From positions 96,680-160,679 of the IMG/VR virus record IMGVR_UViG_3300027759_000050: a DNA stretch of 64,000 nucleotides; one strand, given 5' to 3'. Below are positions 2,909-42,318 of this stretch, one piece after another; within the stretch, counting starts at the first letter, position 1, and every line of letters begins with the position of its first letter. This DNA comes from a virus. The notes beneath the pieces are model-generated. The model had not been told where the DNA came from and did not search any database. It saw nothing but the letters and a program-made list of their open reading frames with translations. Both the position numbers and the translations under genes were made by a program.

Positions 2909-3659
2909 TATCTGATCCTTTTGTCCAAGTGATTATTTCCCATTTACCGTCATGGTGTTCTACCAATGCAGTACAACTTTCAACCCAATCACCATCATTC
3001 ATATAAACAACACCATTAATATCCTTAATTTCCGCCTTGTGTATATGGCCACAAATTATACCATCATATCCACGTTTTTTGCAATAGTTAGATAGATTAT
3101 ACTCAAACTTGAACATAAAGTCAACAGCTTTTTTCACACGCTGTTTCAGATACTGACTTAAACTCCAATATCCAAAACCAAACTTATGTCTGAACCAATT
3201 AAATTTGGAATTTAAACTCAAAATTAAATCGTATGCTCTATCACCTAAGAATGCTAACCAAGGAGCCAATCTTGTGATACCATCAAACAAATCTCCATGA
3301 ACAACAAGGTAATGTTTACCGTCAGCACCAATATGTTCTATTTGATTATGTATTTCAACTAGACCAAAACTGAATCCATAGGGAATCATAGGTCTTAGGA
3401 ATTCATCGTGATTACCTGCCACATACACTACTCTAGTCCCGCGCTTGGCATGGCCAAGAATTCTACGAACAACATTAGTGTGGCTTTGTTTCCACCTCCA
3501 TTTGTTCTGTTGTATTCTCCATGCATCAATAATGTCACCCACAAGATAAAGAGTGTCGCAACTATTATGTTTTAAAAAGTTATTCAATCTATCTGCTTGA
3601 CAATCTTTGGTTCCTAAGTGAACATCAGAAATGAATATACTTCTATATGTCTTTTGCAT
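2895..3659 (-). CDS. metallophosphoesterase, UDP-2,3-diacylglucosamine diphosphatase (LpxH)-like
   Basis: ISDVHLG, GDIID, GNHD, HGD, GHIH, NDGDW motifs. Confidence 0.85.
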   Translation of the reverse strand: MQKTYRSIFISDVHLGTKDCQADRLNNFLKHNSCDTLYLVGDIIDAWRIQQNKWRWKQSHTNVVRRILGHAKRGTRVVYVAGNHDEFLRPMIPYGFSFGLVEIHNQIEHIGADGKHYLVVHGDLFDGITRLAPWLAFLGDRAYDLILSLNSKFNWFRHKFGFGYWSLSQYLKQRVKKAVDFMFKFEYNLSNYCKKRGYDGIICGHIHKAEIKDINGVVYMNDGDWVESCTALVEHHDGKWEIITWTKGSDNDAE

Positions 3660-39462: not shown

Positions 39463-39490
39463 AGTATAACACAACCACACACTTTGTCAA
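39463..39490 (-). promoter_or_regulatory. sigma70-type promoter for the tRNA array
   Basis: TTGACA-16 nt-TATACT. Confidence 0.85.
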
Positions 39491-39977: not shown

Positions 39978-40022
39978 ACAAATTACACTTACTTTTTAAA
40001 GAACATGATTGATTTCTCAACC
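39978..40022 (-). promoter_or_regulatory. tRNA-operon leader: hairpin plus boxA-like sequence
   Basis: GGTTGAGAAATCAATC hairpin, then TGTTCTTTAAAAAGTAAGTGTAATTTGT. Confidence 0.6.
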
Positions 40023-40031
40023 GAATAACCT

Positions 40032-40060
40032 AGTGTAACAGAAGTCGATGCATCTGTCAA
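40032..40060 (-). promoter_or_regulatory. sigma70-type promoter at the head of the tRNA array
   Basis: TTGACA-17 nt-TACACT. Confidence 0.8.
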
Positions 40061-40083: not shown

Positions 40084-40113
40084 AAAAAACCCCACTTTTT
40101 TAGGGTGGGGTTT
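40084..40113 (-). terminator. intrinsic terminator (attenuator candidate)
   Basis: AAACCCCAC-loop-GTGGGGTTT followed by a T run. Confidence 0.85.
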
Positions 40114-40142
40114 GTGAATTCTGATTTAGTTTTCTTACTCTA

Positions 40143-40250
40143 TTATCGTCCTCCACAACCCCCAACATGCGCCCATGGTTGATTATCGCTACCAATAAAC
40201 GGTGTGCGATACTCACAGGCTGACAATAAGGACTTGAGGAACTGAGACAC
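40143..40250 (-). CDS. 35-aa leader peptide containing all 20 amino acids (not in ORF track)
   Basis: GGAG-5 nt-GTG; MSQFLKSLLSACEYRTPFIGSDNQPWAHVGGCGGR; tandem TAA TAG stops. Confidence 0.75.
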   Translation of the reverse strand: MSQFLKSLLSACEYRTPFIGSDNQPWAHVGGCGGR

Positions 40251-40293
40251 TATAACTCCGAAAAAAATTTAACTATAACTCTATATATACAAC

Positions 40294-40818
40294 TTATTTA
40301 GTGGTTTCTAAAGTTTTCCACTTTATTTCTTCATATTTTGCAGGATCTTCTGGATTCCTAAATTCTTCAAAGACTTCCCACAACTTTTCTTCAACTGAAA
40401 ATTTTGTAACGAGACTGGTCTCCAGTCCGTATGCTTCTATTTCCCATGGATGAAACCAGTAATCTAAATTATCTGAATCAATTTCTTTCTTATGCCAAAC
40501 ACTCAAAGAAGCATTCGTATGTTGATATGCAAATTGTTTCACATGGACCATTTCATGAGCCATTGTTCTAAACAAAGCTGGCGCGCCGATTCCTGGTTTT
40601 ATGTTGATTAGAAATTCTCTAGGTTTCCTACTTGTTTCATAATCAGCAACTTCACAACTTCCATGACTATCTAATGTTTTATCAAACTTAACCAGAACAT
40701 AAATGTGTGGAGATAATTGAGGTGAGAACAAATTTTTAGCGAAGAAGTGGGCGGCCTTTTTTAGATAAGGTTTGAATTTTTCATCAGGACAACCAACAAT
40801 CTTCAAATACATAGGCAC
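40294..40818 (-). CDS. zinc metallopeptidase-like protein (HExxH)
   Basis: TMAHEMVHVKQ...YWFHPWEIEAY. Confidence 0.8.
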   Translation of the reverse strand: MPMYLKIVGCPDEKFKPYLKKAAHFFAKNLFSPQLSPHIYVLVKFDKTLDSHGSCEVADYETSRKPREFLINIKPGIGAPALFRTMAHEMVHVKQFAYQHTNASLSVWHKKEIDSDNLDYWFHPWEIEAYGLETSLVTKFSVEEKLWEVFEEFRNPEDPAKYEEIKWKTLETTK

Positions 40819-42289: not shown

Positions 42290-42318
42290 AGTATAACACA
42301 AAGAGGGGGCTTTGTCAA
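42290..42318 (-). promoter_or_regulatory. sigma70-type promoter overlapping a terminator
   Basis: TTGACA-17 nt-TATACT. Confidence 0.85.

Follow-up and report, generated by a model that had tools for sequence, protein, structure and literature searches.

A 35-codon leader on the minus strand of a T4-like phage, followed by an intrinsic terminator and an array of 27 tRNA genes, has the organization of a ribosome-mediated attenuator. We conclude that it probably senses ribosome stalling, as a sign of general translation failure, and boosts expression of the phage tRNA array; we place the probability of this reading at about 0.7. The conserved leader, its composition, the terminator, a covarying antiterminator and the position of the element are supported by sequence comparison, and switching by ribosome position is predicted by folding models.

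The DNA analysed (the window) comprised 64,000 nucleotides, the final 64 kb of a 160,679-base T4-like phage contig, and its features are collected in Table 1. The phage encodes a gp44 clamp loader, identified by Pfam, and a gp55 late sigma factor (tblastn E 2e-20); the closest cultured match of the clamp loader was that of Methylophilales phage Melnitz (61%). The boxA-like sites of the locus are near the E. coli consensus, which suggests that the host is probably a proteobacterium. Among the 138 terminator-like sites of this genome, no other had such a leader and switch.

Table 1. Features of the leader, the tRNA array and their promoters, ordered along the minus strand.
Feature	Position	Strand	Basis or remark
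Upstream sigma70-type promoter, 11/12, extended -10	42290..42318	-	sequence match; putative use
T4-late-like box ACTAAATA	40295..40302	-	overlaps stop codon of 174-aa gene; putative promoter
Variant late-promoter-like box TATATATA	40282..40289	-	sequence likeness
Shine-Dalgarno GGAG	40256..40259	-	5 nt before GTG; kept in SD-type homologues
35-codon leader ORF with all 20 amino acids	40143..40250	-	GTG start, TAA stop
Predicted sensing window, codons 2-26 (to Trp26; to His28 with shorter footprint)	40173..40247	-	ribosome model
Local hairpin inside ORF (TATCGC with GCGATA), putative pause hairpin	40184..40211	-	partly fixed by search pattern
Segment 2, antiterminator 5' strand, codons 29-33	40152..40166	-	pairing and covariation
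Second stop TAG	40142-40140	-	directly after leader TAA
Segment 3, antiterminator 3' strand and terminator 5' arm	40104..40118	-	pairing and covariation
Intrinsic terminator, 3:4 hairpin (-11.7 kcal/mol) and U-run	40084..40113	-	folding
Sigma70-type promoter below terminator, bypasses switch	40032..40060	-	sequence match
rrn-type antitermination leader	39979..40021	-	GAAA-loop hairpin 40021-40008, boxA-like 12-mer 40005-39994 (10/12), GT-rich box
tRNA array, 27 genes, all 20 amino acids	33854..39977	-	starts with tRNA-Gln(UUG)
Second sigma70 promoter downstream, inside array	39463..39490	-	sequence match
Further promoters inside array	38777, 36418, 35968	-	sequence match
HNH-like ORF inside array	39150-38656	-	without Pfam match
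RNase H-like gene (PF04308) inside array	37208-36720	-	Pfam
DUF2828/DUF7788 gene inside array	35611-34181	-	Pfam

The original prediction had counted 28 tRNA genes for all 20 amino acids downstream of the leader. The amino-acid coverage held; the count was corrected to 27 (26 by ARAGORN and one by Rfam), with two further tRNAs, Arg-UCU and CAU, upstream of the leader at 41766-41613. The gene added by Rfam (37592-37521, minus strand; 38.9 bits) is an atypical CAU tRNA missed by ARAGORN, and two more CAU tRNAs are present, at 34009-33933 (C1:A72, initiator-like) and 41687-41613. A long inverted repeat at 39900-39810 (minus strand) runs from the CCA of tRNA-Gln around an interior of about 60 nt, and arms like these stand after other tRNAs. 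Outside the window, at 64586-64954 of genome C1 (minus strand), ARAGORN identified a tmRNA of the permuted, two-piece kind, whose 10-residue tag ends in LAA. The same program found 13 tRNAs in phage BUCT-ZZ01 (ON615601.1), none listed in this stretch of the record, among them an amber suppressor-like tRNA with a CUA anticodon (L271, 4627).

The leader itself proved to be as described: an ORF from 40250 to 40143 with GGAG, a GTG start and TAA followed by TAG, and a peptide with all 20 amino acids, Met only as initiator, and 30 initial codons all different (birthday estimate 1.7e-4). Among 2932 start-stop pairs of 25-45 codons genome-wide, this leader alone had a distinct-codon run of 30, the next best reaching 22, and a single other ORF contained all 20 amino acids. 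In the phage's long ORFs, 0.09% of 35-codon windows held all 20 amino acids and 0.008% at least 32 distinct codons.

Twelve loci with the element were initially fetched via the upstream 174-aa gene. The full set, obtained with DNA patterns in viral and metagenome contigs, consisted of 45 distinct full-length elements encoding 39 distinct peptides; these homologues are mutually related, and most were chosen by a pattern inside the leader ORF that fixes part of the core. L012 was retrieved via the neighbouring gene, and three additional homologues (L264, L240 and L262) via the terminator alone. The carriers besides this phage were dozens of uncultured relatives. Cultured phages gave no match to the element, and no such leader was present in the stretches of DLP_6, BUCT-ZZ01 and S13 examined, the S13 stretch not including the beginning of the array; a search over 185,579 prokaryote genomes returned two matches. 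The tRNA following the leader was Gln(UUG) in 43 of the 45 homologues, the remaining two having no tRNA in the available sequence. The distance from the stop codon to this tRNA was 149-369 nt, and arrays headed by it reached 29 tRNAs.

Start, stop and frame were kept in the 45 homologues. Starts were GTG or TTG with a Shine-Dalgarno sequence, or ATG, which in 15 peptides lay about 6 nt past a -10 box and would be leaderless. Within the aligned 3' portion of the ORF, indel lengths were multiples of three, and the length of the spacer after the stop varied freely. The peptides, of 33-44 residues, contained 20 amino acids in 26 cases out of 39 and 19 in a further 11 (19-20 in 37/39), the shares expected from phage protein windows being 0.0009 for 20 and 0.01 for 19-20. 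The strongly altered peptide of L012 still had all 20. L264, L240 and L262, whose peptides have 19, 16 and 15 amino acids, respectively, retained the ORF as well as the pairing; thus none of the three homologues found by their terminator had kept it while losing the frame or the complementarity. The L240 leader lacks Cys though a tRNA-Cys follows, and L262 (about 3000-3260, minus strand) has the same terminator and antiterminator before tRNA-Gln with an unrelated 30-codon leader, which begins 8 nt past a TAAATA box. Amino-acid completeness is a rule of the family, not an absolute one.

The run of 30 distinct codons was the extreme of the family, most homologues having 4-18. The expectation that related phages would carry a short ORF with high codon diversity and a covarying antiterminator/terminator pair was borne out, and the long distinct-codon run was not; the conserved features are amino-acid coverage and high codon diversity rather than the run. 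Given the peptide, synonymous diversity exceeded that from phage codon usage in 43/43 related ORFs. Measured against uniform codon choice it was only a little higher, 30.1 versus 28.9, with p<0.05 in two, and no selection beyond the amino acids was demonstrated. Swapping N- and C-terminal halves among homologues lowered completeness from 0.67 to 0.61 (p 0.18), which left compensatory relocation unsupported.

The complementarity between the end of the ORF and the 5' arm of the terminator was confirmed: the segments 40166-40152 and 40118-40104 pair at 13 of 15 positions, one of them as G-U, and the terminator lies at 40113-40084 as predicted. The window's 2:3 duplex had a z of -3.3 against shuffles, and in all 45 homologues the duplex outscored shuffles at p<=0.05 and the terminator (-8.7 to -16.3 kcal/mol, with a U-run) was present. 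The mean 2:3 energy was -19.5 kcal/mol with each element's own partner and -15.7 (sd 0.35) with permuted ones, the best of 10,000 permutations reaching -17.2. On a plain MAFFT alignment 81% of the cells of the helix were paired, with double changes in 6 of 15 pairs, while slid registers were 30-53% paired. The covariation score was reached by 0 of 500 shuffles, a test that relatedness inflates; the slid-register control and the partner permutation agree with it. Comparison of the homologues thus indicates an antiterminator, 2:3, that is conserved and covarying and excludes the terminator. The attenuator geometry proposed in the original prediction is therefore upheld by a conserved frame and a conserved, covarying antiterminator. 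The 1:2 helix was not conserved (own partner -15.0, permuted -14.6; 8 of 45 beat shuffles at 0.05), and in the clade of this phage it is able to form. A three-way 1:2 covariation spotted by eye in L061, L137 and L193 was discarded after the family-wide test failed.

E. coli has several leader-peptide attenuators, thrL, ilvL, hisL, trpL and pheM (before pheST). The switch was modelled by folding the transcript up to the terminator loop under a ribosome mask, and the same model placed the switch correctly for thrL and hisL and only roughly for ilvL. With the A site at or before the Trp codon, 2:3 was predicted to form in 42-45 of the 45 homologues at most positions, and from three or four codons past Trp it was absent. 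The predicted switch was sharp and lay at the same codon in 45/45, consistent with the proposal that ribosome position sets masking of the antiterminator. With the footprint edge set at +11 instead of +15, the window's modelled switch lay at His28 instead of Trp26. Equilibrium folding of the full-length RNA was rejected as a readout: the terminator won at every ribosome position in the window, and it also won for thrL, hisL and ilvL, which makes the result uninformative. Since the terminator wins at full-length equilibrium, the switch would have to be kinetic.

The position of the modelled switch limits what the leader could sense. No codon is repeated among the 25 from 2 to 26, which specify 17 amino acids, and 19 of the array's 26 ARAGORN tRNAs could decode one of these under simple wobble rules. 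Across the family the sensing window covered 16-19 amino acids, Met being absent from 38 of 39 peptides, His from 32 and Val from 26; extended by three codons, it covered 18-19 in 36/39. Val29 and the Gly-rich tail are encoded by the antiterminator strand itself. In the model Val, internal Met and probably His fall outside the sensing window. The term 'all-codon' used in the original prediction does not fit a window that ends at Trp26-His28; 'near pan-amino-acid' is a fair label for the leader. An association between an ATA codon and tRNA-Ile(UAU) (13/7/1/14, Fisher p 6e-4) was set aside because it follows the clades of the tree and cannot count as independent evidence.

BoxA-like sites were scored against the consensus of E. 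coli rrn. A transcript from the promoter beginning at 42318 could, by its position, traverse tRNA-Arg, tRNA-CAU, a dCMP deaminase gene (Pfam) and the 174-aa gene into the leader; between that promoter and the leader there was no hairpin directly abutting a U-run. A terminator-like hairpin at 42325-42290 (minus strand) overlaps the -35 box and spacer of this near-consensus promoter. TAAATA stands before many long genes of the genome, and a TATATA or TAAATA box precedes the leader in 44 of 45 homologues, reading TATAAATA in L012 and CCTAAATA in L262. A sigma70 promoter of at least 10/12 lay upstream of the leader in 24 of 45; the window's own candidate inputs are limited to the late-like boxes and possible read-through from the 42318 promoter. 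The 160-kb genome has just two copies of TATATATA, one ahead of the leader and the other at about 34021-34014, between tRNA-Leu(UAA) and tRNA-Met(CAU).

Both sigma70 promoters that had been proposed below the terminator were recovered. The interval from terminator to tRNA-Gln contained such a promoter (10-12/12) in 45/45 homologues, followed in every one by a boxA-like site of at least 9/12. A 16-bp spacer, as in rrn P1 promoters, was present in 30 of these 45 promoters. In the window, an rrn-type hairpin with boxA-like and GT-rich boxes recurs at about 39455-39396 (minus strand), after the second array promoter. The array has its own sigma70 promoters, and the attenuator would therefore be a booster, one input, rather than the gate it had been taken for. 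The promoter below the terminator may make read-through a minor input. If the downstream promoters were damped by the stringent response or in late infection, the attenuated input would dominate when tRNA is short.

These promoters would also suit an attenuator tuned to overall translation rate, initiation or infection stage, contributing little tRNA and not responding to tRNA cleavage. Weak GTG or TTG starts in many homologues are consistent with such tuning, as is a codon content that does not track array content independently of clade. With no ribosome present the model defaulted to read-through in 40 of 45, which also fits, although this prediction is unreliable and the method got it wrong for thrL and ilvL. 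A sensor of rate or initiation, however, has no need of 19-20 amino acids in 35 codons, and the leaders of other phages (L218, L247 and L251) are biased toward the amino acids of the tRNAs that follow them. We consider tuning of this kind unlikely.

The 14-residue core that ends at Trp26 lies immediately ahead of the switch point, the place expected of an arrest motif bound in the tunnel; it is nearly invariant, and several of its columns show synonymous changes only. The leader could thus be a nascent-peptide arrest attenuator in the style of TnaC, SpeFL or ErmCL, stalling for one ligand or factor, with its amino-acid richness incidental. The invariance is partly imposed by the search pattern, however, and among the homologues found without it the core was changed in L012, L240 and L264 and absent in L262, the switch being kept. 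Moreover, when the core was held fixed and the flanks were random, all 20 amino acids were present in 1.4-5.7% of peptides against 67% observed, which indicates that the flanks complete the set far above chance. Arrest in response to one ligand or factor is quite improbable.

The products of attenuator leaders can act in trans (PMC7298713), and many homologues have their own promoter and terminator. The terminated RNA was also more stable than shuffles (z -2.65), as might be expected of a trans-acting small RNA, or of a gene for a small protein, with a plain terminator and a 2:3 match that is a by-product. Covariation of 2:3 would be useless to a constitutive terminator, the position before tRNA-Gln is fixed, and Rfam covariance models including T-box gave no match over 40084-40260 at E<=1; we regard a product of this type as very improbable. 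That the ORF arose by chance in a GC-rich intergenic spacer is hardly credible, even with its most striking statistic, the 30-codon run, not conserved, given that start, frame, composition and covarying helix are conserved over 45 homologues.

We therefore return to the stall-sensing attenuator. RNA polymerase would arrive from a late-type promoter or the upstream operon, and a ribosome would initiate at the GTG, as the conserved Shine-Dalgarno sequence, start and frame suggest. With tRNAs plentiful, the folding models predict that a ribosome beyond Trp26-His28 covers segment 2, so that 3:4 pairs and transcription ends. The codons before that point number about 25 and represent 16-19 amino acids, most of them once; a ribosome lagging at any of these codons would allow 2:3 to pair before segment 4 is made. 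The pairing is indicated by covariation, and polymerase would then be expected to read into the array. The attenuator would be a demand-driven second input atop a basal one, probably most useful late or when the sigma70 promoters are down. We infer translation of the leader and use of its promoters, as well as the size of the effect and the trigger, which may be starvation, cleavage of tRNAs or a general slowdown. When ribosomes slow down, the phage's tRNA production probably rises. Whether one goes further, and sees in a single leader a near-universal monitor of charged tRNA by which loss of almost any tRNA raises the whole set, in a closed feedback loop that acts as inducible counter-defence, is nearly an even question, with the balance slightly against.

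It has long been asked why phages encode complete tRNA sets. For a few phages, their tRNAs have been shown to replace those cleaved by host defences, and expression has been treated as constitutive. If true, the stall-sensing attenuator would close a feedback loop on the supply of tRNA and would be evidence that tRNA loss elicits a response from these phages. As a 200-nt part it could be assayed directly in E. coli, and it would offer an off-the-shelf genetic reporter of tRNA-targeting defence systems and of toxins whose specificity is not known.

Classical leaders reiterate between one and three amino acids, and a single promoter drives the biosynthetic or synthetase genes under their control. 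Like those of the thrL/ilvL type, the phage element combines a short leader ORF, an antiterminator strand at the end of the ORF and mutually exclusive 2:3 and 3:4 helices, and in calibration its modelled behaviour was that of thrL and hisL. Unlike them, it uses most amino acids once, without repeated control codons, has no conserved 1:2 helix, and precedes tRNA genes that a downstream promoter serves independently of the switch. A related case is the uORF of mycobacterial whiB7, whose stalling leads to antitermination; depletion of many different amino acids, tRNAs or synthetases switches it on, with a response dictated by the sequence of the uORF (10.1101/2023.06.02.543512). The whiB7 uORF, however, is Ala-enriched, cellular and controls a transcription factor, and is neither a near-complete sampler nor a feedback on tRNA supply.

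Phage tRNAs replace host tRNA destroyed by anticodon nucleases, as in the rescue from retron-Eco7 by the tRNA-Tyr of T5 and SP15, which depends on its expression strength (PMC11555353), and in PARIS (PMC11464382). Supplementation in T5/SP15-type cases is described as driven by strong promoters, whereas the array studied here would add leader control. Neither PMC11555353 nor the jumbo-phage survey PMC7824862 contains the word attenuation or the word leader. In the literature covered, which took in few subscription papers, we found no account of attenuation with phage tRNAs, broad tRNA sensing or phage tRNA regulation. Ribosome-mediated attenuation itself is known; as far as we searched, its combination of a near pan-amino-acid sensor with a tRNA-gene output appears to be unpublished.

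The terminator search also revealed six loci in unrelated phages (L213, L218, L247, L250, L251 and L258) with a short leader and a terminator 10-30 nt before blocks of tRNAs. Their leaders are rich in Asn/Leu/Thr/Val/Ile or in Leu/Val/Cys, matching the tRNAs that follow. In these codon-matched loci the tRNAs stand in blocks, each with a cargo-biased leader and no promoter between terminator and first tRNA, whereas here one near-complete leader precedes one complete array with promoters of its own.
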